DNA of 37,417 bases from Pseudonocardiaceae bacterium (lineage in GTDB: Bacteria; Actinomycetota; Actinomycetes; Mycobacteriales; Pseudonocardiaceae). The position numbers were made by a program, and so were the translations under genes. The DNA lies in the NCBI GenBank assembly GCA_036270375.1, contig DATBCR010000714.1:1-37417 (forward strand). The letters run 5' to 3'. The notes beneath the pieces were generated by a model. The model worked only from the letters and a program-made list of their open reading frames with translations. It made no database searches and was not told the DNA's origin. The stretch's first letter is position 1. Every line of letters begins with the position of its first letter. Positions 1,873 through 37,417 of this stretch are shown piece by piece.

Positions 1873-1886
1873 CTGGAAGGGAATCT

Positions 1887-3239: not shown

Positions 3240-3312
3240 GATTACATCCTGACCGTCGTAGCGGCGGAAATCGGTAGCACCAGTACCCCTGTTTCCGGTG
3301 TCGACATCGTCA

Positions 3313-4149: not shown

Positions 4150-4728
4150 CAGGTCAACTGCTTCCTTTTCGCTGGTCATTGCTGGCCATTGGTTTGGATC
4201 ATTCGCTCTCCGCACCGGCAGTTGCCTGCGGTGCTGGAGTCCTGGTCCGGCAGTCTGGACCGGTGGCGACCTCGTTCCTGGATGATCTGCTTGACCCGCC
4301 AATGCGGGGTGTACAGGCCGATGTCGGGATCGGCGGCTCAATCCAGGACGTTGATCGCTGCGGCCTGGTCGACGTCCCACGCAACCCCGCACAATGTGCG
4401 GTGAAGCCGATCCCCGTCACGAACACCGAGAGTGCTCGTGCCGGGATGACTTGCAAGGCGTAGGCCGCGCTGACCAGCCGCACCACAGAACATCTGCGGT
4501 CCGACACGTCGTGTAGCGCTTGTCCGGTGAGCAACGTGGCGTAGTGGCATCGGTCGGTGTCGCCCATCGACATTCCCCCCAATATCGCACATGTGTTCGA
4601 TTCCAGTTAACGTCGAGGCGTCGACTGTGCGCAAGCAACAGTGATCGAACGAGTGACAACGACACGACCCCATACACGCCCCACAGTGCATATGTTTCGT
4701 CAGGCACAAGTAAGAAAGCACGTCCTGC

Positions 4729-7700
4729 TCACGGCTCCCTGGTCGGCTGAATCTCGTATGTCCGTTGGGAAAGACGGGCCAGGCTCGCACCGACGATCCG
4801 GCCGATCGCGGCCCGCGCGGCGGGATGCAACATGTGGTCGTGGTCGGCCGGGACGTCGTGGCGGACGATCGGCCCGGCAACGTGCGGCACCCAGCGGCGG
4901 ACCCGGTTGGCCGCCTCGCGCTGTGAGATGCCTTCCGTCGCGACGAAGACATCGAGGCCGCCGGGGCGCCGGGCCGGCGTGAACTCCGTGGCCAGGCGGG
5001 TGTACTCGGCCATCGCGGTGAGCAGTCGGGGCAGTCGGGCCGCGTCGACGGCCGCCATGATGCCGCCGCGATCGCGCAGCAGGGCCAGCACGCCGTCCCG
5101 GGTGAGCACCTCGTCGGACAGGCCGGCGCTGTCGAAGCCGACGTTGTCACAGAACTTGGCCAGCAGTTCCCGTTCGGTCGCGACATGCGTTGCGGTGTCC
5201 GGGAAACTGTCGATGGCGGCCACGTAGTCGACCCGCTCCCCCATCGCCGCGAGCAGCGCGGCCATGTCGTGTGCGAGCAGGCCGCCGAACGACCAGCCGA
5301 GCAGGTGGTACGGGCCACTCGGCTGGATTTCCCTGACCAGCCGCACGTATTCGACGGCGAGATCGGCGAGGTCGCCCGCGATCGGGGCGCCGGTGTCGAT
5401 GTGCGGCGACTGGATGCCGTAGATCGGGCGGCGCGGGTCGACGTGCTCACCGAGCCCGAGGTACGGCAGGCTCAGCCCGAGTCCACTGTGGACGCAGAAC
5501 AACGGTGGCAGGTCACCGGTCGGGCGGATCGGCAGCACGGTGGCGAACGGATCGACGTCGACACCGACGCGTTGGCCGCCGACCTCGGCGACCGTGGCGA
5601 GGCCGGCAGGCGTGCGGTGCACGAACAGGTCGGCCACGTCCACCAGCACGCCCGCCCGGGCCGCCCGGTCGACGACCTGCAGCGAGCGGATGCTGTTGCC
5701 ACCGGCGGCGAAGAAGTCGATATCCATGCCAACGCCGGAGATGCCAAGCACGTCCGCGAACACGTCGCACAGGATCCGCTGCACCGCGGTCTCGGGTTGG
5801 CGGGCGTCACGGGTGTCGATCACCGGTGCCGGCAGCCGGCCGCGATCCACCTTGCCGCTGGGGCTGGTCGGAAATTCGGTCAGCCTTACGACGTAAGACG
5901 GCACCATGTAGTGCGGCAGCCTGGCCTCCGCGAACTCACGCACCGAACGGGCCAGTTCGACGGAATCGGACTCGGTGATCACATAGGCGACCAGGGTGTC
6001 GTCGCGAACCGTTGCCGTCGCGGCGATCACGGCGGGATGGGCCGCGATCGTCGACTCGATCTCGCCGAGTTCGATGCGGAAACCACGCAGCTTGACCTGC
6101 TGGTCGGACCGGCCGACGAAGTCCAATTGGCCGTCCGGCAGCCAGCGGACCAGGTCGCCGGTGCGGTAGATCCGGCCACCGGGCGGGCCGAGCGGGTCGG
6201 CAACGAAGCGTTCCGACGTGAGACCTGCCCGGTTCAGGTAACCCCTGGCCAGGCCGCCCGCGACGTACAGTTCGCCGACGACGCCGACCGGCACCGGCCG
6301 CAGCCGCGCGTCCAGCACGGCAACGCGATGTCCGGTCACCGGCCGGCCGATCGGCGGCCGGGCGGCACCGGACAGCGGATCGCTGACCGTCGCCCACACT
6401 GCGGTCTCGGTCGGGCCGTACAGGTTGAGCAGCATGCGACCGGCCGACCAGCGGGCCGCGACCTCCGGCGGGCACGCCTCCCCGGCGACCGCGAGGACGA
6501 GATCGGTCGGCAGGTCGCGGTCGGCCGGCATGGTGCCGAGGACGACCTGTGGCAGCACGGTGTGCGTGACGGCGGCGCGGGTGATCGCGTCGGCCAGCCG
6601 CGCACCGGTGCGGTCGGCGTCGGCCAGCAGCACAAGCGCACCGCCGGTGAACACCGAACCGCACAGCTCCCACACCACGGCGTCGAAAATGGGCGACGCG
6701 AACTGCAGCATCCGGACCGGACGGCCGGTGCCGACGTACGCGGCCATCGCGTGGCCGAGCCCGGCCGCGGCGGAATGCGGGATGACGACACCCTTCGGCC
6801 GGCCGGTCGAGCCGGACGTGTAGATCACGTAGGCGGGGTGGTCCGGTGACAGCGGCGCGGTCCGGTCGGTGTCGGTCAGGTCGGTGGCCAGACCGGTGGT
6901 CGCGTCGGTGTCGTTCGGCGACACCACCGGCAGGCCGGCCGCGTGCAGTCCGGCGGACGTCTCGGGCACGGCGATGCCGCAGACCGGCCGCGCGTCGGCG
7001 AGCACGTAGTCGATCCGGTCCTGCGGCAGCGTCGGGTCGATCGGCAGGAACGCGGCGCCCGCCTTCAGGACAGCGAGCACGGCGACCACGAAGTCCGGCG
7101 TGCGGGGCAGCGCGAGCGCGACGAACGCCTCCGGGCCGACACCCCGCCGCACCAGGACCCTGGCCAGCCGGTTGGCCCGCGCGTCGATGTCGCGGTAGGT
7201 CAGTTCCGCGCCGTCGCACACCACGGCGATGGCGTCCGGCGTGTGCAGCACGTACCGGTCGAACATGCCAGGCAGCGTGTCGCCGACGGGCGTGGCGGTC
7301 GGACCGGCCCATACCCGGGTCACCAGGTTGGTTTCCTGTTCGCTCAACAGGTTCAGCCCGCTGATCCGAGTGTCCACTTCGGTCACGACGGCCCGCAGCA
7401 CGGTGAGCAGCCGACCCGCGATCGACTCGGCCGTGGCATGCGTGAACAGGTCTGTGCTGTACTCCAGCCAGCCGTCAAGGCCCGAGGGTGCGCCGTTGTC
7501 GGTGTGCTCGTCGAACTGGAAATGCAGGTCGCACTTGGCCGACGTGCCGACGATCGGTTCGACGGCGGCGGTGATGCCGGGCAGGTCGAACTCCGGTTGC
7601 CGGTAGTTGCCGAACACCAGCGCCACCTGGAACAGCGCCTCCCGCGCCAGGCTGCGGTCCGGGTTCAACGCCTGGACCACCCGCTCGTACGGCACGTCCT

Positions 7701-10700
7701 GGTGCGCGTACGCGGCGAGATCCGTTTCCCTTGCCCGCCGGACGAGTTCCGCGAACGTCGGGTCGCCGGACGCGTCGACGCGCAGCACGAGCGTGTTCAC
7801 GAACAGGCCGACCATGTCCGCGAGCGCGTTGTCGGTGCGGCCGGCGATCGCGGTGGCCAGCGGGATGTCCGTCGCGCCGGTGAGTTTCGCCAGCAGGGTG
7901 GTGAGCGCGGCCTGGCACACCATGAACAGCGTCGAATCGGCTTTCCTTGCCAGCGCGACGAGATCGCGGTGCAGTTCCGGCGGCACCGCGAAAGCCACCG
8001 AGCCGCCGCGATGGGTGGTGATCGGAGACCTTGGGTGGTCGGTCGGCAGGGCCAGTTCCGGCGGCAGGTCGGCCAGCGCGGTGCGCCAGTAGTCCAACTG
8101 CCGGTTCAGTTCGCTGTCCGGGTCCGCTGGGCTGCCGAGCACCTGGTCGCGGTGCCACATCGTGTAGTCGGCGTAGCGGACCGGCAGCGGCGCCCAGTTC
8201 GGCTCGACGCCGGCCAGCCGCGCCCGGTAGGCCGTGCCGAAGTCACGCATCAGTGGCACGGCGGACCAGCCGTCCGCGACGATGTGGTGCGCGACGACGA
8301 GTAGCACGTGCTCGGTCGGGGCCAGCCGGAACAGCCGTGCCCGCACGGCAAGCCCGTCGGCGAGGTCGAAGTCGCGCACCGTCTCGGCGGCCAGCCGGCC
8401 CGGCAGGTCGGCGGGCGCGACATCGGAAACCGGCAGTTCGACACCGTCGATTTCCAGGACCTGTTGGCGTGGTTCGCCGTCGACGGCCGGGAACACCGTG
8501 CGCATCGCGTCGTGCCGGGCCACCACGTCGGTGAACGCCTGCCGGACGGCGGCGACGTCGAGCTCGCCGGACAGCCGGATCGCAAGCGGCACATGGTAGA
8601 CGCCGTGCGCGGCGCCGAGCCGGTTGACGAACCACAGCCGGATCTGCGCCGGCGACAACGGAACCACGTCGGGCAGGACGCCCAGCCGCAACGCCGGACG
8701 CGGGCCGTCCGCCGCCGCGATCACCCGCGCCAGGCCGGCCGGGGTCGGCGCGCGGAACAGTTCACGGACCGGTAGTTCGACGCCGAACACCGCACGTACG
8801 CGGCTGACCAGCGCCGTACCGAGCAGCGAATGCCCACCGAGGTGGAAGAAGTCGTCGTGCACGCCGACCGACGGCAGCCGCAGCACGTCCGCGAACAGGC
8901 CGCACAGCAACTGTTCGGCGGGCGCTTCGGACTGCTGGGTATCGGCCACCGCGAGATCGGGTTCGGGCAGCGCGTTGCGGTCGGTCTTGCCGCTCGGGGT
9001 CATCGGGAACCGGTCAAGCACCATGATCGTCCCCGGCACCATGTACTCGGGCAGCGCGGCCGACAGGTGCGCGGCCAGCGTCGCGCGGTCCGGCGGGGCG
9101 GCCGGATCGGCCGGCACGACGTAGCCGATCAACCGCACGTCGGCCGGCCCGTACTCGCGGGCGACGACGGCGGCCCGCTGCACGTCCTGGTGCGCGGACA
9201 GCACCGACTCGATCTCGCCGAGTTCGATCCGGAAACCGCGCACCTTCACCTGGTGGTCGGTGCGGCCGAGGAATTCCAGCCCGCCGTCGGACCGCCAGCG
9301 CACGATGTCACCGGTGCGGTACATCCGGGTGCCGGGACCTCCGAACGGGTTGGCGACGAACCGGGTCGACGTCAGGTCGAACCGGTTGAGGTAGCCGCGG
9401 GCGACGCCGACACCGCCGACGTACAGCTCACCGGGCAGTCCCGGCGGGACCGGCCGCAGCGCCGCGTCCAGCACGTAGTGCGTGTAGTTGGCCATCGGGC
9501 CGCCCAGCGACACGCCGATGCGGTCGGCGGTCAGTTCCGTTGCCGTGCACCAGATCGTCGCCTCGGTCGGGCCGTAGACGTTGTACACCTCGCGGGCGCC
9601 CGCGATCAGCGCTTCGGCGAGCGGTTCCGGCAGCGCCTCGCCGCCGGTGATCACCCGCACGGCGGACAGGTCGGCGCCGACGGCGATCAGTGACTGCCAG
9701 CGGCTCGGCGTCGCCTGCACGACGGTCGCGCGGGACGTGCCGATCAGCTCGGCGAGCGCGGCCGCGTCCGTTGCGACGTCGTCGTCCGCCATGACGAGTT
9801 CCGCGCCGACCAGCAGCGGCATGAACAGTTCCGCGTTGGAGATGTCGAAGCCGAACGTGGTCGCGGACACCAGCCGGTCGGATTCGTCAAGGCCGAACCG
9901 GTCGCACATGTCGAGCAGAATGTTGGCCAGCGCGTTGCGCGGCACGACGACGCCCTTGGGCTTGCCGGTCGAGCCGGACGTGTAGATCACGTACGCCGGA
10001 CTGTCCTCTATGGACTCCACTGGCTCGCGCCCGACGGCGTCCGCCAGCACGGCCGGATCGTCCAGCAGGAGTGTCGGTGTGCCGGCAAGACTCGTTTCGG
10101 CCAGCTTCGCCGATGTAGCGCTGTCACTGAGCACCAGCACGGGTGCCGCGTCGGACGCCATCGCGCTGATCCGGTCGACCGGGTGGTGCGGATCGATCGG
10201 CAGGTACGCCGCGCCGCTGGACAAGACCGCGATCGCGGCCACCACCAGGTCGATACCGCGCGGCAGGGCGATCGCGATCAACCGCTCCGCACCGGCACCA
10301 CGGGCCAGCAGGGCGTCGGTCAGCAGGCGCACCCGCGCGTACAGGTCGCGGTAGGTCAGGGTCTCGGCGCCGCAGCGCACCGCGATCGAGTCCGGCGTGC
10401 GCAGGGCTTGGGCGGCCAGCATCGCGGGCACGGACGCCGAACCGAAGTCACGGCCGGTGTCGTTCCAGGTGTCCAGAACGAGTTCGCGGTCCTCCGGCGA
10501 CAGGGCGTCGACCCGGCCGACCGCCACGTTCGGGTCGGTGGCGTACGCGGCAAGCAATCGGTGCAGCCGGTCGGCGATCGCGTCGGCCTGTTCAGGGGTG
10601 AACACGTCCGGCGTGTACTGCACCAGCAGCGTCATCCGGTCGCCGGGCAGCACGGTGAGGCTGAGCGGGTAGCCGGTCGCGGCGCGGACCTCGGAGGAAG

Positions 10701-11808
10701 TCACGCGCAGCCGGTCGCCGATCTTCGCGACGCCTGCGCCGGCCATCGGGTAGCTCTGGAATGTCATGATCGTGTCGAACAGTTCGCCGACGCCCGCTAA
10801 CCGCTGCACGTCGGCGAGGCCGATGTGCTGGTGCGACAACAGGTCCACTTGCTGGTCTCGGACGGCGGCCACGGTGTCGGCGAGGGAGGCGGCCGGGTCG
10901 AGCACGACGCGCACCGGCAGCGTGTTGGCGAAAAGGCCGACCATCGACTCGACGCCGTCCAGGTCCGGCGGCCGGCCGGAGTCGACGGCGCCGAACAGGA
11001 TGTCGCGCTGTCCGGTCAGGCCGGCCAGCAGCATCGCCCAGCACACCCGCAGGACGGAGTTCAGCGTGCTGCCGCCGGCCCGAGCCCGCATACCGATGCG
11101 GGTGGTCAGTTCTTCGGACAGCTCGACCGCGACCGTCGCCGGAACCGTTGGCGGGCCGACGTTTTCGGCGACCCTGGTCGGATCGGTGACATCAGCCAGC
11201 GTCGCCCGCCACGCGGCTTCGGCCGCCGGCACGTCCCGGTCGCGGAGCAGGGCCAGATAGTCGGAGTACGGGCGGATCGGCGTCAGCGCGTCCGGATCGG
11301 CACCGCTGACGTACAGCGCGAGCAGTTCACGCACCACGATCGCCAACGACCAGCCGTCCAGCAGGATGTGATGCACTGTCCACAGTAGACGATATTGGTC
11401 CGGCCCTGTGCGGATCACGGTGGCGCGCACCAGCGGCGGCTGCGCGAGGTCGAAGCGCGCCACCCGGTCGGCGTCGGTGATCCTGGCCAGTTCGGCGGCG
11501 AGTTCGTCGTCGGGCAGCCCGGACAGGTCAACCTCGGCCACGATCGGCGCGACGTCGGCCGGCACCACCTGGACCGGCTGGCCGTTGCGCCGCCGCCGGA
11601 AGCAGGCCCGCAGGGTGGCGTGCCGGCGCAGCAGGCCGGCCGACGCCGTCCGCAGTGCCACGGCGTCCAGCGGACCGACGAGATCCGCGACGAGCTGCAG
11701 CACGTGCGGATCGACGCCGTCGGCCTCGAACTCGGCCCGGAACAACAGGCCCTCCTGCAACGGCGACAACGGCAGGAACTCGCTCGCTCGCTTCGGCTTC
11801 GCCTTCAT
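4729..11808 (-). CDS. NRPS, modules 3-4 with terminal thioesterase: C-A-T-C-A-T-TE
   Basis: First C: [12 protein letters not shown] and HHILLDGWS. First A: [15 protein letters not shown]. First T: [10 protein letters not shown]. Second C: [10 protein letters not shown] and HHIVADGWS. Second A: [15 protein letters not shown]. Second T: [13 protein letters not shown]: GWSFGG. The basic N-terminus (MKAKPKRA) fits a docking acceptor. GAGGAG lies 5 nt before the ATG. Confidence 0.97.
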
Positions 11809-11838
11809 GGATGCTCCTCAGTGCACGAAATCCAGCTA

Positions 11839-14800
11839 TCAGTCCAGTCCGAATGCCAGCTCGTCGGCCTCGTCGTCGGCCAGCGAGAGCAGTGGAAGTG
11901 CGATTGATTCGCTGAGCGATTCGGTGGTTGAGAGACCCGCAGCGGTCGCACCGACCACCGAACCGACCAACGTCCGTGCCACGCCGGCCAGCGCGGCCAC
12001 GGTACGGTGCCGGAAAACAGCTCCGACATCGATCTCGACGCCGGCCAGCCGCGCCCTGCCGACGACCTGGATCGAGTTGATGGAATCCCCACCCAGTACG
12101 AAGAAGTCGTCGTCCAGCCCGACCCTCGGCACGCCGAGCACGGCGGCGAACACCGTGCACAGCACCTCCTGCGTCGGTGTCACCGGCTCCCGGCCGCCCC
12201 ACAGTTCCAGCAGGTCCGGGTCGGGGATCGGCAGCGCGTCCCGGTCCAGCTTGCCGTGCGCGGTCAGCGGCAGCGCGTCGACGACGAGCACGGTTGCCGG
12301 CACCAGGTAGCCGGGCATCCGTTGGCCCAGCAGGAAACGCAGCTCCGCGGGATCTGGTTCGGCGGCGGCCACCACGTAGCCGACGAGTTTCGCGTTGCCG
12401 GCCGCGTCGTCGATCACGCGCGCGGCGGCGTCCGCGATCCCGTCCAGTGCACGGAGCCCGGCCTCGACATCGCCCAGTTCGATCCGGTGGCCACGCACCT
12501 TCACCTGGAAGTCCCTGCGTTCCAGGAACTCCAGCTGGCCGTCCGGCCGCAGTACGACCAGGTCACCGGTGCGGTACATCCGCGCCCCGGCACCGGCGAA
12601 CGGGTCGGCGACGAACGTCGCGGACGACTTGACCGGGTCGCGCAGGTAGCCGCGGCCGACGCCGGTGCCACCGACGTACAGCTCGCCGGGCACACCGGGT
12701 GGGACCGGGCTCAGCTCGTCGGACAGCACGTACAGCAGGGTGTTGCGGACGGCACGGCCGATCGGCACGCGCGTGCCAGATATCGTTGCGCCGCTTACGA
12801 AGGCGTGTGTCACGTCGTCCGAGCACTCGGTCGGGCCGTACGCGTTGAGCAGTGGGATCCCGGCGAACCTGGCCGCCCAGCGGCGGCACAGGTCCGGCGG
12901 CAGCGCCTCGCCGGTCACCGCGAGCCACCGCAGTGTCGTCAGTGCCGGCATCCGCGCGCCCGCGTCCCAGTCGTCAAGGGTGGCGCGCAGCAGCGACGGC
13001 ACGACCTCTAGTACGGAGACCTCGTCAATGTCCACAGTGGATAAAAGCGCTGTCGGATCACCAGAGGTCTCCCGGGTCACCACGCGGACGGAGCCGCCGG
13101 CGAGTAGCGCGGCCAGCATCTGCCACACCGAGATGTCGAACGTGACGGGAGCGTTGTGCACCACTATGTCGCCCGCGCCGAGCGCGAGATCCTCGACCTT
13201 GGCCAGCAGGTGGTTGACCATGCCGCGCCTGGTTACCATGGCGCCCTTGGGTCGGCCGGTCGAACCGGACGTGAAGATGACGTAGGCAAGATCGTTCGGC
13301 GCGCCGAGCGTCGGGGCGAGATCGGTGAGCGGATCGGTGACCTCGTCCAGCACCATGATCTCCACCGGGTGGTGGGCGGCGGCAGCGACGTGCTCGGCGA
13401 GCGAGCACAGCGACCGGGACACCAGCAGCACGTCCGCGTGCGAGTCGGCGAGCACGGTCGCGGTCCGCGCGATGGGCGCGTGCACGTCCAGCGGCACCCA
13501 CGCGGCCCCCGCGCCGAGCACGCCGAGCACGGCGGCGACGAAACCGGTGCCCGGCTCGGCGAGCACAGCGGCGAGCCGCACGCCGGTCAGTCTGCGGGTG
13601 ATCGCGCTGGCCCGGCCGACGAGCCGCGCGTAGTCCAGCGTGCCGCTGTCGTCGGACACGGCTCGGGTTTCCGGCGCTGCCATGGCGATCACGCGGATCG
13701 CGGTCACCACGTCGCCGTCCGGTTCCGGTTGCCGCACACCCGCGACGGGCAGCCAGTCCTCGGGGGTCGGCAGCACATCCAGACCGCCCAGCCTGCGGTT
13801 CGGGTGGGCTACGGCCTCGGCGAGTAGGCGGACCATCGCGTCGGCGAATCCGGCGACTCTTTCGCGGTCGAACACGTCCGGCGCGTGGTCGAACCGTAGC
13901 CGCAACTGTTGGCCGGGTAGGACGACGAGGCTCAGCGGATAGTGCCGGGCGTCCCGTGCCCATGTCCGCGTGACCCGCATGCCGCGTGTCTCGCCAGCCA
14001 ACGCCGTCGCGTCGGTCGGGAAGTTCTCGAACACCACGGCCGTGTCGAACGGCTCCCCGGCACCCGCGAGCGCCGGCACGCCGGACCGCAGCCGGGCCAG
14101 GCCGACGTGGTGGTGCGGCGCCATCGTGGTCCACTGCCGCTGCAACTGCCGGCACAGCGCCACGATCGACGTGCCGGGTGTGGTCGCCGCGCGCACCGGC
14201 ACCGTGTTCAGGAACATGCCGACCATCACGTCCGAGCCGGCCACCTCCGGCGGCCGCACGGCGACGGTCGCGCCGAACAACACGTCCTGCTTGCCGGTCA
14301 GCCGCCCGACCAGCACGGCCCAGCAGCCCTGTACGACGCTGTTCACGGTCAGGTCCGCCGCGCCTGCGAACTTTCCAAGAGCCGCGGTCAACTCGGCCGA
14401 CAGGTCGACGGTGACGGAGTCCGGCAGCACGGCGGTCCGGTCGGCGCCGGGCGCCACTGTCGACGGTCCCGAGACACCGGCGAGCAGTTCCCGCCACGCG
14501 TCGAGCGCCGCCGCACTGTCCTGTTCGGACAGCCAGCGCAGGTAGTCGGCGTACGGTGGCACGGCGGGCAGGCCGGCCGCGACCGGATCGCCATCGGTGC
14601 CGTAGAGGGCGAACAGTTCGCGTGCCAGGATCGGCATCGACCAGCCGTCCACCAGGATGTGGTGTACTGTCCACAACAGACGGTGCTGATCGGGCGCGGT
14701 ACGCACCAGAGTGCAGCGCATCAGCGGCGGCGCGCTCGGATCGAACCGGCGGACGCGGTCCGCGTCGGCCAGCCGGGCCAGTTCCGCGTCCTGGTCGGCG

Positions 14801-17800
14801 ACATCCGTCAGGTCGATCACCGTGACGTCGATGTCGACCGTCGCCGGGATCACCTGCACCGGGTCGCCCGACACCCGGAACCGGAAGCCGGCGCGCAGGT
14901 TGGGATGCCGGTCCAGCAGCGCTGCCACGGCGGCGCGCAGCGCGGCGACGTCCGTCGGGCCGGCCAGGTCGGCGAGGATCTGCAGGTTGTAGACCTCGTC
15001 GCCGGTCCGGTCGAACTCGGCGTGGAACAGCAGGCCTTGCTGCAAGGGTGCCAGCGGCAGCACGTCGGCCAGACCGTTCGGCTCGGCTTCGAGCGCGGAC
15101 AGTTCGTCCTGCGTGATGTCGACCAGCGGCAGGTCGGACGGCGTGCGCCCGCCCGCGCCGTCCGCGGCGGCGTGCTCGACCAACACGGCCAGTGCGCGGA
15201 ACCAGGTGCGGGCGATGTCTTCCGCGTCGGCGTCGGCCAGGATCTCCCCGGCCCACAGCCAGTCGGCGACCAGGTGTGGGCCGTCGGCGCGGTCCTGGGT
15301 CAGTGGTGTGACGGCCAGGACGTGCCGCAACGGCAGCGTGGGGCCGGTCGCCGTGCCGACGCCGACATCGCCGTCCAGCCGCCACAGCGCATCGGTGTGC
15401 GCGGTTTCGAAGCGGCCGAGGTAGTTGAAGCCGAGTTGCGGCCGGGTTTGGAGTGTGGGGTCGTCGGCGGAATCAGTGAGGTGGCGCAGGATGCCGTAGC
15501 CGATGCCGTGGTCGGGCAGTGCCCTGCGCTGTTCCTTGACGCGCTTGAGAAGCGTGCCCGCCGCCGCGCCGCCGGCCCATGCGTCGGCCAGGTCCAGTTC
15601 GCCGGGATCGAGGGACAGCGGGAAAACGGTGGTGAACCAGCCGACCGTGCGGGACAGGTCGACGTCGTCGGCGATGTGCTCGCGGCCGTGGCCCTCCAGT
15701 TCCACCAGCACTCTGGAGTGGTCACGACGCCAATCGGCAACCGCCATACACAGGGCGGCGAGCAACACGTCGTTGATCTCGGCGTGGAATCGGGCCGGCA
15801 CGACGGTCAGCAGCGGGATCGTCGTGTCGGGCGGGAGTTCGAGCCGCAGCGAGTGAGCCGTGCCGTACGTGTCCCGGGTCGGGTCGAGTGCGCGGGTGCC
15901 GAGCAGCGGGTCGGGACCGGTCAGTTGTGCCTGCCACAGTGGTAATTCCGCTGTCCTGGCACCGGTTTCCGCCTGCTCGGTGAGCAACGCGGACCACCGA
16001 CGGTAGGACGTCGGAACCTGTTCGAGCGCTGGTGCGCCAGGCTCGCATGCGGCTTCGAGATCGGGTACCAGGACGCGCCAGGACACGCCGTCAACGACCA
16101 GATGGTGCACCATCAGCAGCAGTTCGGCGGTGCCGTCCGGCCGGCGGAACAGCGTTGCCGCGACGTTGCGCCCGGCGGCGGGGTCGAGCCGCGCGCGGGT
16201 CGCGTTGACGCGGGCGAGCCGGGCGGGGTCGGCGGTCGTGGCGAGCAGCCGATCGGTCGGGGTGTCGCCGGGTGGTGGCACAGTGAGTGTCCATTGAGGA
16301 CCAAGCACCATCCGGAGCGCGTCGTGCCGCTCGACGATGGTGGCCAGTGCCGTGGCCAGGGTCCGCTCAGTCAGGTCGGCCGGCACCGGCAGCACAACGT
16401 ACTGGGCGTAGTCCCGCATCGCGGCCGGGTCGGCTGCCGTGTCCTCGCGGAGTTGGTGCGCGATCGGCGTCGGTGCGAACTCGCCGACGCCGTCGTCCAC
16501 GACGTGGGCGCGCGGGTCGACCGGCACGGCGGCGCGCGCGATCGCGGCCGGTGTCTTGTGGGTGAACACGTCGTTCGGCGTGATCAGCAGGCCGGCCCGG
16601 CGTGCCCGGCTGATCGCCTGGATGGCCACGATGGAGTCGCCGCCGAGGGCGAAGAAGTTGTCGTCGACGCCGATCCGGTCCAGGCCGAGCGCATCGGCGA
16701 ACGCGGCGCACACCGCGCGTTCCCGGTCGTTCGCCGGCGCCCGGCCTGCGGGTGCGGCGCCGAGATCCACGTCCGGCAGCGCGGCGCGGTCCAGCTTGCC
16801 GTGCGCGGTGAGCGGCAGCTCGGCCAGCACGGCGATCGTCGACGGGACAAGGTGATCAGGCAGCCGGCCGGCCAGTGCCGTGCGCACCGCCGTGCCGTCC
16901 AGCTGGTCGGCGGCCGGCGTGACGTAGCCGACCAGCCTGCGGTGCCCGGTGCGGTCCGCGCGTACCGCGACCGCCGCGTCCGCGATGCCCGGCAGGTCGC
17001 GCAGGGCGGCCTCGATCTCGCCGAGCTCGATCCGGTGACCGCGAATCTTGACCTGGAAGTCCCTGCGTTCCAGGAACTCCAGCTGTCCGTCCGAGCGCCA
17101 GCGGACCCGGTCGCCGGTGCGGTACATCCGCGCGCCATCGGCCGCGAACGGGTCGGGCAGGAACGTCGTCGCCGTGCGGCCGGGGTCATGCAGGTAGCCC
17201 CTGCCGACACCGACGCCGCCGACGTACAGCTCGCCCGGCACGCCGCACGGCACCGGCAGCAGTTCGTCGCCGAGCACGTACAACCGGGTGCCACGCACCG
17301 GCCGGCCGATCGGTGTGCGCCCGACGACGGGTGCGCGGCCGTCCAGTACGGCGTGCGTGACGTCGTCCGAGCACTCGGTGGGGCCGTAGGCGTTGACGAG
17401 CGGCACTTTCGGGAACCGGTCCGCCCAGCGGTCGCACAGGTCCGGCGGCAACGCCTCGCCGGTCGCCACCAGCCAGCGCAGCGCGGACAACTGCGGCTGC
17501 GTCCCACCGGCGTCCCACCAGTCCAGCGCGGCGCGCAGCAGCGACGGCACGACCTCCAGGACCGTGACGGCTCGCCGGTCGGCCAGCCCGAACAGCTCCT
17601 CCGGCGACGCGGCGACGTTCTTCGGGACAACCGTCGTGCGGCCGCCGACCGCGAGTCCCGCAAGCATCTGCCACACCGAGATGTCGAACGTGACGGGGGC
17701 GTTGGCGATGATGTGGTCGGCGTCGGTGAGCCCCAGATCGTCCACTTTGGCCAGTAGGTGGTTGCCCATGCCGCGCCGGTGCACCATGGCGCCCTTGGGC

Positions 17801-19635
17801 CGACCGGTCGAACCGGACGTGAAGATCACGTAGCCGAGGTCGTCCGGCGCGCCGACGGCGGCCCGCCTTGGCTTCGTCGCGCGGCCGAACGGCAGACCGG
17901 CCGACACCACCCGAACCGTGTCCGCGACGGCCACCTCGGCGGCCAGGGCCTCGTGGCCGGGGCCGGCGACGATCAGGCCGATGCCGTTCTCGGCGAGCAG
18001 GGCCGCCGTGCGCGGCATCGGCGCCGACACGTCCAGCGGCACCCATGCGGCGCCGGTGGTCAGGATCGCCAGCACCGCGCCGACGAACCGAACGCCGGGC
18101 GCGGCCAGCAGCCCGACCAGCATGTCCGGGCCTGCCCCGGCGGCCGCCAGCTTGCCGGCCAGGCGGTCGGACCACGCGACGAGGTGCGCGTAGTCGATCT
18201 CCGTGTCGGCGTCCGCGACCGCGATCGCGCGCGGGTGGTGCAGCGCATGGTCCCGTACGCGATCCACAATGGACAGTGGTTCGCTGTCGGCGGGCCCGCT
18301 GCCCCAGTCCCGCAGGCGGTTCGCCTCCGGTTCGGTGAGCAGCGGCAGCCCGCGTACGACGCTGTCCGGCTCGGAAACGGCGAGCAGGTCGAGGAACTGG
18401 GCGAACCGCGCGAGGTGGCCGGCGACGTCCGCCTCGTCGTACAGTGCCGGATTGCCGTTGACGTGTAGGTCGAGCTGGCCGGGCACGGGTTCGGTGACGG
18501 TGATCATCAGGTCGGTGACGGTGCCCGTGGACAGGTTGACCAGCCGTGACCGGCAACCGGGCAGCGGCAGTTCGTCCGTCGCAGGCAGCACGTTCACGAA
18601 CGGCCCGAACGGCCGCTGGTCGTCGGCGCGCAGGCCCATCGCGCGGCGGATGCCGCTGGTCGGGAAACGCTGGTGCCGCAACGCTTTCGCCAGCCCTCGG
18701 GAAGTACCGGCGAGCAGTTCGCCGACCGTGGTGTCGCGGCGGACGGCGATGCGCAGCGGCAGGTAGTTGGCCACCATGCCGGGCACGGCCCGCATCTTCG
18801 CGCCGACGCGCGCGGCCACCGGCAGCGTGAGCAGCGCCTCGTCACCGCCGAGCAGCCGCTGCGTGTAGGCGGCCGACGCGGCGATGACGACGGTCGGCCA
18901 GGTCACCTTGGTCGCGGTCGCCAGCGCGCGCAAGCTGTGCACGGTGTGCTCGGGCAGGCTCGCGGTGCGGCGCAGGTGACCGGTGGCCGGCGTCAGGGCA
19001 CGACCGGACGGGCTGGCCGGGTCGGGGGCGCCGGCCAGCGTCGTCCGCCAGTACTCGCGGTCGGTCGCGAACGCGGGGGACGCCTGGTAGGCGGCGTCCC
19101 CGGCGAGCAGTTCGCGCAGCGGTGGCAGTGCGCCCGCCTCGGTCGGGCCGCCGGTGGCCAGCGCGTGGTACAGCTCGCCGAGCCGCCGCCAGCAGATCGC
19201 GTCGCTGAACCCGTCGCCGACGATGTGATGGCCGAACAGGCAGCACCAGAACCGCTGGCCGCCCAACGTGATCAGGGTCCAGCGGATCACCTCGCCGGCC
19301 GTCGGGTCGAACGGCCGGACCAGCTCGGCGTGTACCCGCCCAAGGGCCGCGGCTTCGGGATCGGCTTCGGCACTGACGTCCAGTTCGGTCATCGGCGGTT
19401 CGCCGACCGGCCGGACGACCTGGCTCGGTCGGCCGTCCACGTCCACGAACCGGGTCCTTGTGTTCTCCATCTCGCCGTACAGCAGGCGGATCGCGGTACG
19501 CAGTGCCGGCACGTCCAGCGGGCCCGTGATGTCCAGGTAGTCGCCCATGTTGTGGGCGGTGCCGCCGGGCCGCATGGTCACGTCGAACCAGATGTCGGTC
19601 TGTGCCGAGGACAGCGGCAGGAACTCGGCGCTCAC
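11839..19635 (-). CDS. NRPS, modules 1-2: starter-type C-A-T-E-C-A-T with an acidic C-terminal docking tail
   Basis: Starter C: [14 protein letters not shown] (EntF-like) and HHIVGDGFS. First A: [14 protein letters not shown]. First T: [12 protein letters not shown]: [10 protein letters not shown]. Second C: [13 protein letters not shown] and HHILVDGWS. Second A: [15 protein letters not shown]. Second T: [11 protein letters not shown]. The tail reads [14 protein letters not shown]. The start was trimmed to GTG 19635 (GGGAGA upstream), which overlaps the sbnA-like stop (GTGA). Confidence 0.97.
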
Positions 19636-20633
19636 CGTGCTCTCCCGGACAGGGTGCGGGCAACGTCGGTGAGCACTTCCTCGCCGTAGATGTCGGCCAC
19701 CCACTGGTCGTGATAGACGGTGTCCAGATAGCGCTCGCCGAGGTCCGGCGCGATAGCGACGGCGACCGGGCGGTCACCATCACGATCGCTGACGTCGTGT
19801 TCGCCGAGCCAGCGCAGCGCGCCGCTGAGCACGGTGCCGGTCGAGCCGCCGAACAGGAAACCCTTGCCGGCCAACGTGCGGCACGCGCGCACCGTGTCCG
19901 CCTCGTCGACGAGTACTACATCGTCCACAAAGGATTCATCCAGGATGCCGGGCCGAACGCTGGTGCCGAGCCCCGGGATCATCCTCGGCGCGGGCGGCGA
20001 ACCGAACGTGACGGAACCGACGCTGTCCACGGCGACCACCCGCACGGACGGCTTGTGCACGGCGAGGTGCCGCGCGCAGCCCATCAGCGTGCCCGTTGTG
20101 CCGGCGCCGACGAACAGCACGTCCAGGTCGGGGAACGCGGCCAGCAGCTCGGGGCCGGTGGTACGGGCGTGCGCGCCCCAGTTGGCCGGGTTGCGGTACT
20201 GGTTGAGCCACACGTACTCCGGGTTCTCCGCGCACAGCCGCCGCACGTGCCGCAGTCGCACACCGAGAAAGCCCAGTTCGACGTCCGGCTCGTTCATCAC
20301 GTGCACCGTGGCGCCGAGCGCCTGCATGAGCTGGCGGGCGGTGAGCGTGCATCGGGCGTCGGTGACGCACAGGAACCGGTAGCCCCGGCTGGTCGCGACG
20401 ATGCTCAGCGCGACACCGAGATTGCCGGACGAACTCTCCACGATCGTGGCGCCCGGCCGCAGCCGGCCGTCCCGCTCGGCCGCGTTCACCATTTCGACGG
20501 CGGCCTTCAGTTTGATGGACCCGGCGAAGTTGAATCCCTCGCATTTCAGGAACAAGGGGGCGGCGGCCAGGTCCGTCAGGTCGACGTACAGCTGTGCCAC
20601 GTTGAATTCCTGGGGGGACGATATGACCTGCAT
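19632..20633 (-). CDS. sbnA: SbnA-type PLP enzyme (cysteine synthase fold; N-(2-amino-2-carboxyethyl)-L-glutamate synthase of the L-Dap pathway)
   Basis: From [10 protein letters not shown] the translation aligns along its length with my memory of S. aureus SbnA: [10 protein letters not shown] (PLP Lys), [30 protein letters not shown] and GGSTGTV. AAGGAGG lies 5-6 nt before ATG 20633. The 606-aa ORF in the track is an artefactual 5' extension. Confidence 0.88.
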
Positions 20634-20650
20634 GGTGACCTCCTTCGCGC

Positions 20651-21679
20651 CTAGACGCCGTACCTGCGCAGCTCGGCGAAGAAGCCGTCGACGGTGGCCA
20701 GTTCGCCACGTCGCACCAGCTCGTCGTAGACGAACCGACCCACCGCGAGGTCGAGCACGCCGAGACCGAACGGGGAGAACACCACGGGCCGCTCGGCCGG
20801 CAGGCGGACCGCGCCGGTGACGACGTCGGCGAGCGTGCCGGTGATGAAGTCGCGGTGCCCGACCTGCTGTTCGGCCAGGTGGACGGAGGTGTTCGCCTTC
20901 AGGCAGTGGTCGACGTCGTCGACGATGTTGGTGGCGTCGAGCACGATTTCCGGCGCCAGGTCGCGCAGCGACACGTGCAGCACCAGCGGCTTGTGCTCGA
21001 ACCAGCCGATTTCCTTGACATGCGGCGTGCCGGCGACAGTGGCGAACACGACGAGATCGGACGACCGGATCAGCTGTTCCGCGCTGTCGTGCACCGTGGC
21101 TGTCATACCGGGCATCGCCCGGTCGAGATAGCCACAGAAACCGACGGCATGGTCGGCGGACAGGTCGTACACGCCTATTTCGTCGAAATCCCAGCCGTTC
21201 GCGGCCAGGAACGTGTGGATGTAGCGGGCGATCAGGCCGGTGCCGATGAATCCGATCCGGCGTGGCCTCGGTTTCGCCGGCCCGGACAGCCGGTCGGCCG
21301 CCAGCGCCGCGGATGCGGCGGTGCGCACCGCGCTGATGATGGAGCTTTCCAGACACGCCAACGGATATCCGGTCCGCTGATCGTTGAGAATCAGCACGGC
21401 GGACGCCCGTGGCAGGCCGACGTGCACATTGTCCGGAAAGCTGGAGATCCACTTCACGCCGTCCACCCCGACCTGCCCGCCCGCCGAAGCCGGCAGCGCG
21501 ATGATCCGGGACTGCGGACGGTCGGGAAACGTCAGGAAATAGGACGGCGGATTCACCGTCTGGCCGGCCGCGTGCAGCAGGTAGGTGGCCTCGATCAGCT
21601 CGACCAGTCGTTTTTCCTGGTCCCGCAGCACATCACGGACCTGGTCCCCGCCGATGACCGCGAACGTCGGTGCTGACAC
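20651..21679 (-). CDS. sbnB: SbnB-type NAD-dependent dehydrogenase (ornithine cyclodeaminase/mu-crystallin family) of the L-Dap pathway
   Basis: RIIALPASAGG..GVKWISSFPDN...ASAVLILNDQRTGYPLACLESSIISAVRTAA and IGFIGTGLIARY (Rossmann fold) match the OCD/SbnB pattern. It is paired with the sbnA-like gene. GTG 21679 is preceded by GAGGGAG. Confidence 0.85.
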   Translation of the reverse strand: MSAPTFAVIGGDQVRDVLRDQEKRLVELIEATYLLHAAGQTVNPPSYFLTFPDRPQSRIIALPASAGGQVGVDGVKWISSFPDNVHVGLPRASAVLILNDQRTGYPLACLESSIISAVRTAASAALAADRLSGPAKPRPRRIGFIGTGLIARYIHTFLAANGWDFDEIGVYDLSADHAVGFCGYLDRAMPGMTATVHDSAEQLIRSSDLVVFATVAGTPHVKEIGWFEHKPLVLHVSLRDLAPEIVLDATNIVDDVDHCLKANTSVHLAEQQVGHRDFITGTLADVVTGAVRLPAERPVVFSPFGLGVLDLAVGRFVYDELVRRGELATVDGFFAELRRYGV

Positions 21680-21748
21680 TTGTCTGCTCCCTCTCAAGAA
21701 CCGGATGGCTCTGCCCGCCCGGACGTCACCCACTGTCGCCAACGCCGC

Positions 21749-21777
21749 TGACACGTCGCTGAGCCGCGACTGATGGG
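21749..21777. promoter_or_regulatory. Three heptamers at exact 11-bp phasing (TGACACG-N4-TGAGCCG-N4-TGATGGG) in the divergent sbnB / response-regulator intergenic region; candidate SARP operator
   Basis: Read directly: repeat starts at 21749, 21760 and 21771. The same architecture and the same heptamer TGACACG recur at 35633-35661. On the minus strand a -10-like GACAGT (21737..21732) follows after 11 nt. Confidence 0.4.
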
Positions 21778-21847
21778 TGCCGCGCGGGGCGTCGGGAGCC
21801 GATAGATTGAGTGGGCCAGCAACTCCACCGAGCGAAAGCAGCAGCCC

Positions 21848-22510
21848 ATGCGTGTCGCCCTCGCCGAGGACCAGTACCTGCTCCGGGACGGCATCAGTCG
21901 GCTGTTGGAGGCCAACGACTTCGAGATCGTCGCCGCGGTCGGCAGCGGCCCCGAAATGCTGGACGCGATGCGCGAGCACCAACCGGACATCAGCATCGTG
22001 GACATCCGACTACCACCGACATTCACCGACGACGGCCTACAGGCGGCGCTGGCGGCCCGGCGGACACATCCGGGCCTGCCGGTGCTGTTGCTGTCCCAGT
22101 ACGTGGAGCAGCTCTACGCCAAGGAGTTGCTGGAGAGCGGCAACGGCGGGGTCGGCTACCTGCTCAAGGACAGGGTGTTCAACAGCGACCAGTTCGTGTC
22201 GGCGTTGCGGCAGGTCGCGTCCGGCGGCACCGTGATGGACCCGGACGTGATCGCGAAGCTGTTGTCCCGCAACGCGAACGAGAGCATCGTCGCTCGGCTC
22301 ACGCCCCGTGAACTTGAAGTGCTCGGACTGATGGCCGAGGGCAGGTCGAACATGGCGATCGCGGCCGCCCTTGTCGTGACGGAACGCGCGGTCGCCAAGC
22401 ACATCAACAACATCCTGGCAAAACTGGACCTGCCACCGTCCGAGGACGACAACCGTCGGGTGCGGGCGGTGCTCGCGTATCTCGAGCACGGCGTGATCCC
22501 GAACTCCTGA
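21848..22510 (+). CDS. Response regulator, NarL/FixJ (LuxR-type HTH) family
   Basis: Receiver domain (VALAEDQ, acceptor Asp in DISIVDIRLPP, LLKD) plus a C-terminal HTH (LTPRELEVLGLMAEGRSNMAIAAALVVTERAVAKHINNILAKL). Confidence 0.95.
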   Translation: MRVALAEDQYLLRDGISRLLEANDFEIVAAVGSGPEMLDAMREHQPDISIVDIRLPPTFTDDGLQAALAARRTHPGLPVLLLSQYVEQLYAKELLESGNGGVGYLLKDRVFNSDQFVSALRQVASGGTVMDPDVIAKLLSRNANESIVARLTPRELEVLGLMAEGRSNMAIAAALVVTERAVAKHINNILAKLDLPPSEDDNRRVRAVLAYLEHGVIPNS

Positions 22511-35813: not shown

Positions 35814-36578
35814 GTGGCGATTCAGGTGAACATCCTGGGGCCGCTCGTACTCGTGTGCGACAGTCAGGAATACGACGTCGGTTCGGCTCGCTTCCGTACG
35901 CTGCTCGGTCTGCTCGCGCTGGCACCCGGCACGCCCATGTCCACCGACCAACTCGTGGACGAACTGTGGCCGGACCGGGAGATCAGCAACGCGCGCAACG
36001 CCCTGCAGGCGAATGTGGTGCGGTTGCGGCGAAAGCTGGAGTCGATCACCGGCCGGCCCGGCGAGACGCTGATCCGCACCACCACCGTCGGGTATCTGCT
36101 CGACCTCCCTGCCGATGCCGTCGACGCCTGCGGTTTCACCAGTACGGCCGACCACGGCGCCGCGCTGCTGGCCAGCGACCCGGAACGGGCCGCCGCGCTG
36201 CTGGAGCGGGCGCTGCTGATGTGGCGGGGACCGGTGCTTTTCGACGTCACCGGTGGCCCGCGCTGCGCCAACGCGGCGATCCGACTCCGGGAACGGTGGC
36301 TGGCCGCCCAGGAGGATCTTGTCGACGCGAAGCTCGCCATCGGTGGCGAGCGCACCGTGATTCCCCAACTACGACAACTGATCGCGGAACACCCGGAGCG
36401 GGAGCGGTTCAGCGAACTGCTGATGATCGCGCTGTACCGGGACGGCCGGCAGGCCGAGGCCGTCGCGACCTTCCACACGGCACGCAAGTGGCTCGACCGG
36501 GAACTCGGCCTGCAGCCGGGCCGCTCCCTCAGCCGGCTCTACGGCTCCATCCTGCGGCAGGAACCGCAACACGCGTAA
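35814..36578 (+). CDS. SARP-family transcriptional activator (OmpR-type winged helix plus BTAD)
   Basis: VAIQVNILGPLVLVCDSQEYDVGSARFRTLLGLLAL...STDQLVDELWPD...ALQANVVRLRRKL, then BTAD (LLERALLMWRGPVLFDV...ELLMIALYRDGRQAEAVATFHTARKWLDRELGLQPG). GTG 35814 has GGGAGGGAAC upstream. No TTA codon is present. Confidence 0.93.
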   Translation: MAIQVNILGPLVLVCDSQEYDVGSARFRTLLGLLALAPGTPMSTDQLVDELWPDREISNARNALQANVVRLRRKLESITGRPGETLIRTTTVGYLLDLPADAVDACGFTSTADHGAALLASDPERAAALLERALLMWRGPVLFDVTGGPRCANAAIRLRERWLAAQEDLVDAKLAIGGERTVIPQLRQLIAEHPERERFSELLMIALYRDGRQAEAVATFHTARKWLDRELGLQPGRSLSRLYGSILRQEPQHA

Positions 36579-36602
36579 CCGCCCTGCCGACGGGCGCGAT
36601 GT

Positions 36603-36657
36603 CAGCACACATCGGGCTTCGGACAGCACATCGGCACTTGCCAGCACTGCACAGCAC
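36603..36657 (+). repeat. Four CAGCAC repeats in the 100-bp leader upstream of the RiPP precursor candidate
   Basis: CAGCAC occurs at 36603, 36624, 36642 and 36652. The first two extend to CAGCACA(CA)TCGG. GCACT recurs at 36634, 36644 and 36654 with 10-bp phasing. Confidence 0.5.
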
Positions 36658-36678
36658 TCGACACAGATTGGTTGCGCC

Positions 36679-36825
36679 ATGCCCACTATCTGCCTAGAAG
36701 AGTCACCGCAGACGAGCGACCTGGTAATCGAGGAGTTCGACGGGTGGTCCAATCCACCCGCGACGGCGCAGATCGCGCTGTGCATCTGCTGGGCCGAGAC
36801 GACCCCGTCGCTCGTCGTCCCGTGA
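36679..36825 (+). CDS. Candidate RiPP precursor peptide (48 aa), absent from the ORF track
   Basis: ATG 36679 to TGA 36825 encodes MPTICLEESPQTSDLVIEEFDGWSNPPATAQIALCICWAETTPSLVVP. About 85% of codons end in G or C. The acidic leader-like half contains DLVIEEF, and the C-terminal half is rich in Cys, Thr and Ser. The stop overlaps the GTG of the downstream TOMM docking gene (GTGA). There is no clear SD. Confidence 0.5.
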   Translation: MPTICLEESPQTSDLVIEEFDGWSNPPATAQIALCICWAETTPSLVVP

Positions 36826-37417
36826 CCGGATCACACCCGGACCGAGCCGCCGACGCGCCGCGCGTCGGCGGTCTTGGCTTCCTGCGGCACCTGCGGGCCG
36901 AGGTGATCGTGGGCGAGGCGGTCTACCTGTTCGGCGAGCGCAGCGTGACGACCTTGTCGGGCAACGACATCCAGGCCCTCGCAGGCCTGCTGGACGGGAC
37001 GCGGGACGTGCCGGCGCTGTGCGCGGCGCTGGCCGACCAGCTGTCCTCGGCACAGGTGACGCGGCTGGTGGACCGGCTCGTCGCGGCCCGACTGGTCGGC
37101 TGGCAGACGCCGGAAACCGAACCGGGCACGGCGGCCTACTGGGACGCCATCGGCACCGAGCCGCCGGCCGCGGCCACCGGACTGGCGCTCGTGACGGTCG
37201 ACGACGTCGACCCGTCGGCGACCATCGCCGCGTTGCGCGCCACCGGATTCCAGGTGCACGAGACACCGGCCGACCGCCTGCCCGGTGAGCACGGCCTGAC
37301 CGTCGTGCTGTGCGAGGACTATCTCGCGCCGGAGCTCGCCGTCGTCGACGCGACGCACCGTTTGGCCGGATTGCCGTGGCTGCTGGCCAAACCGACCGGC
37401 ACCCAGGCATGGCTCGG
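36822..37417 (+). CDS. TOMM precursor leader peptide-binding protein / E1-like (ThiF-type) cyclodehydratase component, N-terminal part; continues past the right edge
   Basis: Not in the track because it is open at the edge. My translation reads VTGSHPDRAADAPRVGGLGFLRHLRAEVIVGEAVYLFGERSVTTLSGNDIQALAGLLDGTRDVPALCAALADQLSSAQVTRLVDRLVAARLVGW...AAYWDAIG...VVLCEDYLAPELAVVDATHRLAGLPWLLAKPTGTQAWLG. This is the typical N-terminal pattern of TOMM docking / Ocin-ThiF-like proteins. Confidence 0.8.
   Translation, partial: MTGSHPDRAADAPRVGGLGFLRHLRAEVIVGEAVYLFGERSVTTLSGNDIQALAGLLDGTRDVPALCAALADQLSSAQVTRLVDRLVAARLVGWQTPETEPGTAAYWDAIGTEPPAAATGLALVTVDDVDPSATIAALRATGFQVHETPADRLPGEHGLTVVLCEDYLAPELAVVDATHRLAGLPWLLAKPTGTQAWL

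Follow-up and report, generated by a model that had tools for sequence, protein, structure and literature searches.

Does the 48-codon open reading frame (ORF) near the right end of contig DATBCR010000714.1, a 37,417-nucleotide stretch from a Pseudonocardiaceae bacterium that was analyzed whole and is referred to here as the window, encode the precursor of a peptide that is made by ribosomes and modified after translation (RiPP)? An initial annotation made from the letters alone had read this ORF as an azol(in)e-type precursor, coupled translationally to the gene of a leader-binding protein, and our analysis supports that reading: a YcaO enzyme is present, the small ORF is conserved, and no rival precursor was found in the window. 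We conclude that the ORF is very probably the precursor gene of a small, linear, thiazol(in)e-containing azol(in)e peptide, which is made by cyanobactin-type enzymes and is translated together with the overlapping gene of a fused heterocyclase. The window is one whole contig, and the sequence runs that contain its DNA are soil-metagenome runs labelled DNA.

The precursor gene lies on the forward strand at 36679..36825, begins with ATG, and encodes 48 amino acids (MPTICLEESPQTSDLVIEEFDGWSNPPATAQIALCICWAETTPSLVVP), reproducing exactly the peptide quoted earlier. Its TGA (36823-36825) overlaps the GTG (36822-36824) of the next ORF in a GTGA junction, and the GC content at third codon positions (GC3) is 0.84 in its frame, inside the 0.83-0.91 range of the window's accepted genes, whereas the other two frames give 0.57 and 0.55. 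The composition is also as described, with six acidic and no basic residues in the leader (residues 1-26) and two Cys, three Thr, and one Ser in the C-terminal part (residues 27-48). A profile hidden Markov model built from 41 precursors of other loci, the window peptide not among them, matches the ORF at 35.7 bits (E = 2e-10). The runner-up among the 591 stop-to-stop ORFs of the window scores E = 0.058, and this profile finds no other precursor there; the discovery of one had been named as a possible refutation. Between the window and a syntenic locus, L023 (a metagenome-assembled genome labelled Amycolatopsis sp. RYN_118), the 13-codon motif shows eight nucleotide differences, all eight at third codon positions and six of them synonymous. 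On the basis of coding bias, profile match, and a conserved homologue, the 48-codon ORF is confirmed as a real, conserved gene for a putative precursor peptide. The remark that it is easily missed was right for one gene caller, which omitted the precursor ORF on a Logan contig and placed the heterocyclase start at GTG 36744, inside it, but not for the JGI gene caller, which predicted the ORF on contig L084.

The overlapping gene (36822..37417, forward strand) runs for 198 codons, its reading frame extending past the window end, and represents the 5' part of a fused PatD/LynD-type heterocyclase gene, with a winged-helix RiPP recognition element (RRE) and the start of an E1-like domain. In phmmer comparisons with the PDB, the 198-residue fragment aligns with residues 11-192 of LynD (4v1t, E = 8e-16), with MusD (1.7e-14), and with TruD (3.1e-13); its match to the Pfam winged helix PF21084 is weak (E = 4e-4) and below threshold. 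No NCBIfam model matched this fragment, because TIGR03882 ("TOMM precursor leader peptide-binding protein," TOMM standing for thiazole/oxazole-modified microcin) begins at about residue 181-191 in full-length homologues, which is where the window ends. To the right, the sequence continues on L085, a 6038-bp Logan contig from the same soil metagenome (run SRR11836565) that was retrieved by a look-up of the protein of the upstream SARP (Streptomyces antibiotic regulatory protein) gene of the window. L085 is 100% identical over window positions 36600-37417 and extends 1347 nt further. Its ORF from 36822 stays open for 647 codons with no stop, through CWHC...CVYC Cys motifs, and contains TIGR03882 at 126.5 bits (cut-off 36.9) followed by a SagD-type YcaO domain (TIGR03604, E = 9e-62). 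The TIGR03604 score of 209.2 bits falls under the cut-off of 219.25 because the contig end truncates the YcaO domain; the L023 orthologue gives a TIGR03604-type YcaO score of 268.2 bits. The YcaO gene that the initial annotation advised seeking downstream is therefore found as a domain of the same polypeptide, and, since this ORF spans both E1-like and YcaO domains, the gene is a fused PatD/LynD-type heterocyclase. Of the proposed "docking / cyclodehydratase gene," both the leader-binding and the cyclodehydratase parts are retained as domains, but a stand-alone docking protein is not, since RRE, E1-like, and YcaO parts are fused. Homologous heterocyclases begin 9-13 residues before the sequence GFKRHLR; the start at 36822 lies 17 residues before it and the start at 36744 lies 43 before.

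A scan of species-representative genomes, with a query from a five-sequence alignment, returned 410 relatives of the N-terminal part of the heterocyclase, and the cassette is widespread in actinomycetes; a word-indexed protein search gave seven homologues, an underestimate relative to the genome scan. We compared 83 loci, 80 fetched from the 410 relatives and three from metagenome and genome look-ups. In 41 of them a small ORF bearing LVI[DE]x[FL]D ends where the heterocyclase starts or only a few bases from there, often with W.NP after the motif and then a short stretch that contains one to three Cys, and in 28 of these 41 stop and start overlap as (A/G/T)TGA. Overall, a precursor stands beside the orthologous heterocyclase in about 50 of the 83 loci, which settles in favor of the initial annotation its question of whether the small ORF is conserved. 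An exhaustive phmmer search with the 48-residue peptide against 1.84 billion representatives returned one relative only (P0009, MPTFLAEEPMQSSDLVIEEFDGWQNPPASAQISLCICWSEPAALLVAP), so that detecting the precursor family requires a profile. P0009 is also 48 residues long, is 69% identical, and lies on metagenome contig L086 behind a SARP 90% identical to that of the window; start, length, and GTGA junction are the same, and the intergenic DNA has diverged. Some relatives carry repeated cores. The L050 precursor (9498-9968) contains the 13-residue, single-Cys core VTSSCNFTHGPIP four times after one FVLEDFD motif, and L042 (7775-8503) and L056 (9459-9965) each hold two complete LVIDHLDRP..LYGCATGMAPLP units within one ORF; judged from these sequences, the repeats suggest a small final product. 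Loci of the Amycolatopsis orientalis group that have no recognizable precursor within 10 kb (L008, L009, L012-L014, L017, L021, L022, L027, L040, and L051-L053, and likewise L057, L061, L063, L064, L068-L071, and L075) mostly miss the kinase and regulator genes described below as well. In L048, L059, and L067 the precursor lies ~5 kb upstream.

Within the window peptide, the leader carries the motif LVIEEFDGWSNP (residues 15-26, 36721..36756, forward strand), an instance of the family-wide LVI[DE]x[FL]D.W.NP. By analogy with LynD and its leader, this motif is presumed to bind the RRE domain of the heterocyclase. In a 15-sequence alignment (A3), I17, D21, and C37 are nearly invariant. The core segment LCICW (residues 34-38, 36778..36792, forward strand) contains C35 and C37 as predicted thiazol(in)e sites; it is identical in P0009, and ICW is common to the window peptide and the L023 precursor. 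Because LCICW is kept in P0009 while the Thr and Ser downstream of it are not, we assign the predicted modifications to C37 and probably C35. Modification of the tail Thr/Ser was considered and is unlikely, since these residues differ in this 69% homologue.

The clustered ORFs of the 83 loci define the cassette: heterocyclase in 79, SARP in 73, ThcOx/SagB oxidase in 54, HisKA_3 kinase in 53, and LuxR regulator in 49. L023 displays it in full. Its proteins are 64% (ATP-grasp), 60% (isomerase-like oxidase), 68% (ketoreductase, KR), 80% (ketosynthase, KS), and 75% (acyl carrier protein, ACP) identical to those of the window, and its SARP, in the same position and orientation, is 65% identical. 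Behind the SARP comes a 50-residue precursor (MNAHVPDFTSSVELVIDEFDGWSNPIGAAVAPTTICWGEDAATTLPANQA) with a GTGA junction, then a 774-residue heterocyclase that matches LynD over its full length (E = 5e-161) and is 57% identical to the source enzyme, and then a 492-residue oxidase (CyaGox 5lq4, E = 1e-59; TIGR03605, 157.8 bits). The dehydrogenase gene that the initial annotation had proposed to look for is thus present as a SagB/ThcOx gene in L023 and in 54 of the 83 loci; the source contig stops short of its position. Beyond the oxidase lie a HisKA_3 histidine kinase and a LuxR response regulator, followed by ABC ATPase, GNAT, FolD, GGDEF, and MFS transporter genes. The kinase of the cassette has five to six tightly packed transmembrane helices directly before the HisKA_3 domain. 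Given the FolD, GGDEF, and MFS genes beyond it, the L023 cassette is at the edge of a nonribosomal peptide synthetase (NRPS) / type II fatty acid synthase (FAS)-like cluster. The GNAT (Acetyltransf_3) gene, at 16998-18056 on the reverse strand of L023 and 3 kb right of the cassette, is unique to L023 among the compared loci and would matter only for an acylated peptide.

The SARP gene of the window (35814..36578, forward strand) encodes an OmpR-type winged helix and a BTAD domain (Pfam BTAD, E = 8e-40; Trans_reg_C, E = 4e-11). A SARP of the same family adjoins the heterocyclase in 73 of the 83 loci, usually divergently and co-directionally in the window, L023, and L086; on this account the SARP belongs to the precursor/heterocyclase cassette. 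The suggestion that it could serve either cluster is borne out as far as service to the RiPP cassette goes, but the assignment is no longer an open one. Between SARP and precursor gene, positions 36579..36678 (forward strand) presumably hold the promoter and the 5' untranslated region; GC content drops there to 0.60-0.62, versus a window mean of 0.70. Direct repeats occur in this gap (CAGCAC at 36603, 36624, 36642, and 36652; CACATCGG at 36608 and 36627). Neither L023 nor L086 has these repeats, and, since they are absent from L023, we make no claim of a SARP box for them. The sequence AGATTGGT immediately 5' of the precursor ATG is kept in L086.

To the left, the window contains NRPS genes, MbtH, ATP-grasp, KASIII, an ACP-KS-CLF-KR set (CLF, chain-length factor), and an amine-oxidase-like gene; ACP-KS-CLF-KR directly abuts the cassette in both the window and L023. 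Of the 51 precursor-bearing loci, 31 have ketosynthase genes no more than 10 kb away, and 18 of these 31, mainly Streptomyces, have them to the left and to the right; neither a ketosynthase nor an AMP-binding gene occurs within 10 kb in 18 of the 51. In the Streptomyces form the cassette stands between KS/CLF, carboxyltransferase, ACP, phosphopantetheinyl transferase (PPTase), acyl-CoA dehydrogenase, AMP-binding, and ABM monooxygenase genes; this arrangement, exemplified by L038 (Streptomyces sp. NBC_01520) 1882-20545, looks like a conserved larger cluster. The neighboring clusters include type II FAS/polyketide synthase (PKS)-like plus NRPS genes (window and L023), type I-size ketosynthase ORFs (L060, L080, and L011), and NRPS-size ORFs (L044 and L060). 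The association with polyketide/fatty-acid type genes is frequent, not universal, and the neighboring clusters are of varied types. The cassette has its own regulators, as expected of the separate locus that the initial annotation had seen here, but, with ketosynthases within 10 kb in 31 of 51 loci, "separate" may be too strong. Two features of the left flank are recorded for their own sake. At 19632-21982 (reverse strand), a PALP enzyme gene adjoins one of the ornithine cyclodeaminase family, both beside the NRPS genes; we take this pairing to suggest a pathway of the SbnA/SbnB kind that would supply the NRPS with 2,3-diaminopropionate. In the middle of the NRPS / type II FAS-like cluster, an unusual location, a DddA-like double-stranded-DNA deaminase toxin domain (23078-24211, reverse strand; PF14428, E = 3e-32) lies beside an Imm1 immunity protein (22653-23405, reverse strand; PF14430, E = 2e-25), and the two resemble a polymorphic toxin-immunity pair.

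Starting from the observed gene, its conservation, the identity of its enzyme, and the architecture of the cassette, we propose the following pathway. The acidic leader motif would dock on the winged-helix RRE at the N-terminus of the heterocyclase, as homology to LynD suggests. The YcaO domain would then cyclodehydrate Cys37, and probably Cys35, to thiazolines at the expense of ATP, a step consistent with family chemistry and with the conservation of these Cys. A ThcOx/SagB-type flavin mononucleotide (FMN) oxidase, with its gene placed as in L023, would oxidize the thiazolines to thiazoles, and the leader would be removed by a protease encoded outside the cassette. We presume that the adjacent SARP and the polytopic HisKA_3 kinase / LuxR pair, which rounds off the conserved cassette in relatives, drive expression. 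The calculated masses of the peptide are 5201.46 Da unmodified, 5165.44 Da with two azolines, and 5161.41 Da with two thiazoles. The sites of modification, the structure of the end product, and its activity are inferences.

Several observations weigh against this interpretation. The source contig breaks off within the YcaO domain, and the oxidase, kinase, and regulator are seen in relatives only. The oxidase is missing in 19 of 21 Streptomyces loci, and about 24 Amycolatopsis loci with SARP, heterocyclase, and oxidase have no recognizable precursor within 10 kb. The cassette conserves neither a protease nor a dedicated exporter, as judged from the L023 scan and the annotated neighbor families (0-10, 12, 15, 18, 21, 22, 24, 25, 27, 29, and 30; families 11, 13, 14, 16, 17, 19, 20, 23, and 28 were left unscanned). 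In addition, no canonical Shine-Dalgarno sequence or ribosome-binding site was found before the precursor ATG, and a promoter/terminator scan gave no sigma-70-type promoter consensus near the ORF. The missing Shine-Dalgarno sequence, together with the Logan-contig gene caller's choice of 36744, might suggest that the small ORF is an untranslated chance frame and that the heterocyclase starts upstream at that GTG. This is almost certainly not so: the match to the precursor profile, the substitutions relative to L023 at third positions only, the retention of start, length, and stop in L086 despite diverged intergenic DNA, and the stop/start overlap conserved across the family all argue for a translated gene, and the GFKRHLR spacing of homologues fits the start at 36822 far better than that at 36744.

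Two further proposals concern what the peptide is for. The cassette could be a portable autoinduction module, in which the thiazol(in)e peptide is sensed by the kinase, and LuxR and SARP activate the adjoining PKS/NRPS cluster; this proposal is complementary to, not exclusive of, a precursor of a linear azol(in)e peptide. The co-travel of precursor, modifying enzyme, kinase, response regulator, and SARP points in this direction, as do the packed transmembrane helices of the kinase, the fourfold single-Cys core of L050, and the placement of the cassette beside differing cluster types. The lack of a conserved exporter or protease is of the same kind, and no immunity gene is shared among the annotated neighbor families. 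All of this is gene architecture, however, and two-component systems also regulate production in ordinary RiPP antibiotic clusters, while a polytopic HisKA_3 kinase of the DesK-like kind does not necessarily respond to peptides. With 18 of the 51 precursor loci lacking both ketosynthase and AMP-binding genes within 10 kb, and with no description of such a system found in full-text literature (most subscription journals lying outside the search), we regard the signaling proposal as unlikely; we know of no agr-like cluster-situated peptide signaling in the actinomycete phylum. Less likely by a good deal is a hybrid pathway, in which the modified core or a fragment of it is acylated by, or loaded on, type II FAS/PKS-like or NRPS machinery to give a lipidated azole peptide; its logic is one that we take to be comparable to that of goadvionin-type PKS-RiPP hybrids. 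In the Streptomyces form, with the cassette between KS/CLF genes, the peptide might serve as a polyketide building block. The frequency of nearby ketosynthases, on both sides in many loci and among the acyl-processing genes listed above, the abutting ACP-KS-CLF-KR genes of the window and L023, and the GNAT gene of L023 would fit such a pathway. On the other hand, no conserved coupling enzyme of the GNAT, condensation, or ligase type occurs among the shared neighbor families, the GNAT gene being confined to L023, and the neighboring clusters are of different types; furthermore, the L023 cassette sits at the edge of its cluster, with FolD, GGDEF, and MFS genes beyond.

The precursor of a thiazol(in)e linear azol(in)e peptide thus remains our preferred reading, and as such the locus provides a clean, testable precursor-enzyme pair for a widespread, uncharacterized branch of azol(in)e peptides. 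Existing family models do not cover the short-leader precursors, and gene finders often overlook or mis-call them. That the cassette is repeatedly paired with a SARP and a two-component system, and frequently lies beside PKS/NRPS clusters, suggests a possible means of activating silent clusters, and the cassette may even point to peptide-based signaling in actinomycetes. No description of the cassette or its product was found in full-text literature, of which few subscription journals were covered, or in the TOMM landscape paper (PMC4603692).

Among known systems, the enzymes most closely resemble those of cyanobactins. The window/L023 heterocyclase has the same fused RRE, E1-like, and YcaO architecture as LynD, TruD, PatD, and MusD, and the L023 oxidase aligns over its full length to CyaGox, in the manner of ThcOx/CyaGox oxidases. 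Unlike cyanobactin loci, the cassette is hosted by actinomycetes and includes a SARP and a two-component system. Neither the annotated neighbor families nor the ORFs scanned or window-matched within 10 kb of the L023 cassette include PatA/PatG proteases, PatE-type recognition and cleavage sequences were not seen in the window peptide, and no NCBIfam or Pfam precursor model matched it. The PatD/LynD-type enzyme on its own did not lead us to assign the cyanobactin class; since the defining proteases and precursor were not seen in this search, the class that suits the locus best is that of linear azol(in)e peptide (TOMM) clusters. It has what such a cluster comprises: a precursor with a leader and a Cys/Ser/Thr core, and a YcaO cyclodehydratase with an E1-like domain. 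A SagB-type FMN dehydrogenase is required for azoles and optional for azolines. The thiopeptide class was rejected, with no lanthipeptide-type dehydratase or [4+2] pyridine synthase among the scanned or window-matched ORFs within 10 kb of the L023 cassette or in the annotated neighbor families.

A nearer relative on the precursor side is TIGR04351 (TOMM_nitrile_2, "putative TOMM peptide"), which is matched by eight of the 15 relatives in A3 (best 5.7e-15), including all eight long-leader precursors of the nitrile hydratase-like leader peptide (NHLP) kind, from Streptomyces and related genera. These precursors share with the window peptide the LVI[DE]xLD motif and a single conserved Cys about 15 residues on, and their loci share a homologous heterocyclase directly after the precursor, the stop/start overlap, and SARP and kinase/regulator neighbors. 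In contrast, the window leader has W.NP after the motif, and the Streptomyces loci are mostly without an oxidase. We do not place the window peptide in NHLP/TIGR04351, as it has no hit to the model at E <= 1 and is without the ~60-residue nitrile-hydratase-like N-terminal part. No characterized product of either the short-leader or the TIGR04351 form was found in the literature.

Goadsporin and other actinomycete linear azol(in)e-containing peptides likewise combine a fused cyclodehydratase and an FMN dehydrogenase on a ribosomal precursor. Goadsporin-type cores are rich in Cys, Ser, and Thr. The cassette precursors, unlike goadsporin, conserve one or two Cys only, and L023 has no dehydratase gene. 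Goadsporin clusters also encode a dehydratase, and low doses of goadsporin are reported to promote secondary metabolism (PMC4603692). In its regulatory genes the cassette shows a different likeness: precursor, modifying enzyme, polytopic kinase, and response regulator. The enzymes themselves are unrelated, with a YcaO heterocyclase in the cassette versus AgrB in agr; the gene logic corresponds to that of agrBDCA and NisRK autoinduction. The locus adds to the linear azol(in)e / cyanobactin-like RiPPs, a class already known, and its conserved SARP and two-component architecture, together with the recurrent PKS/NRPS neighborhood, sets the cassette somewhat apart within it.

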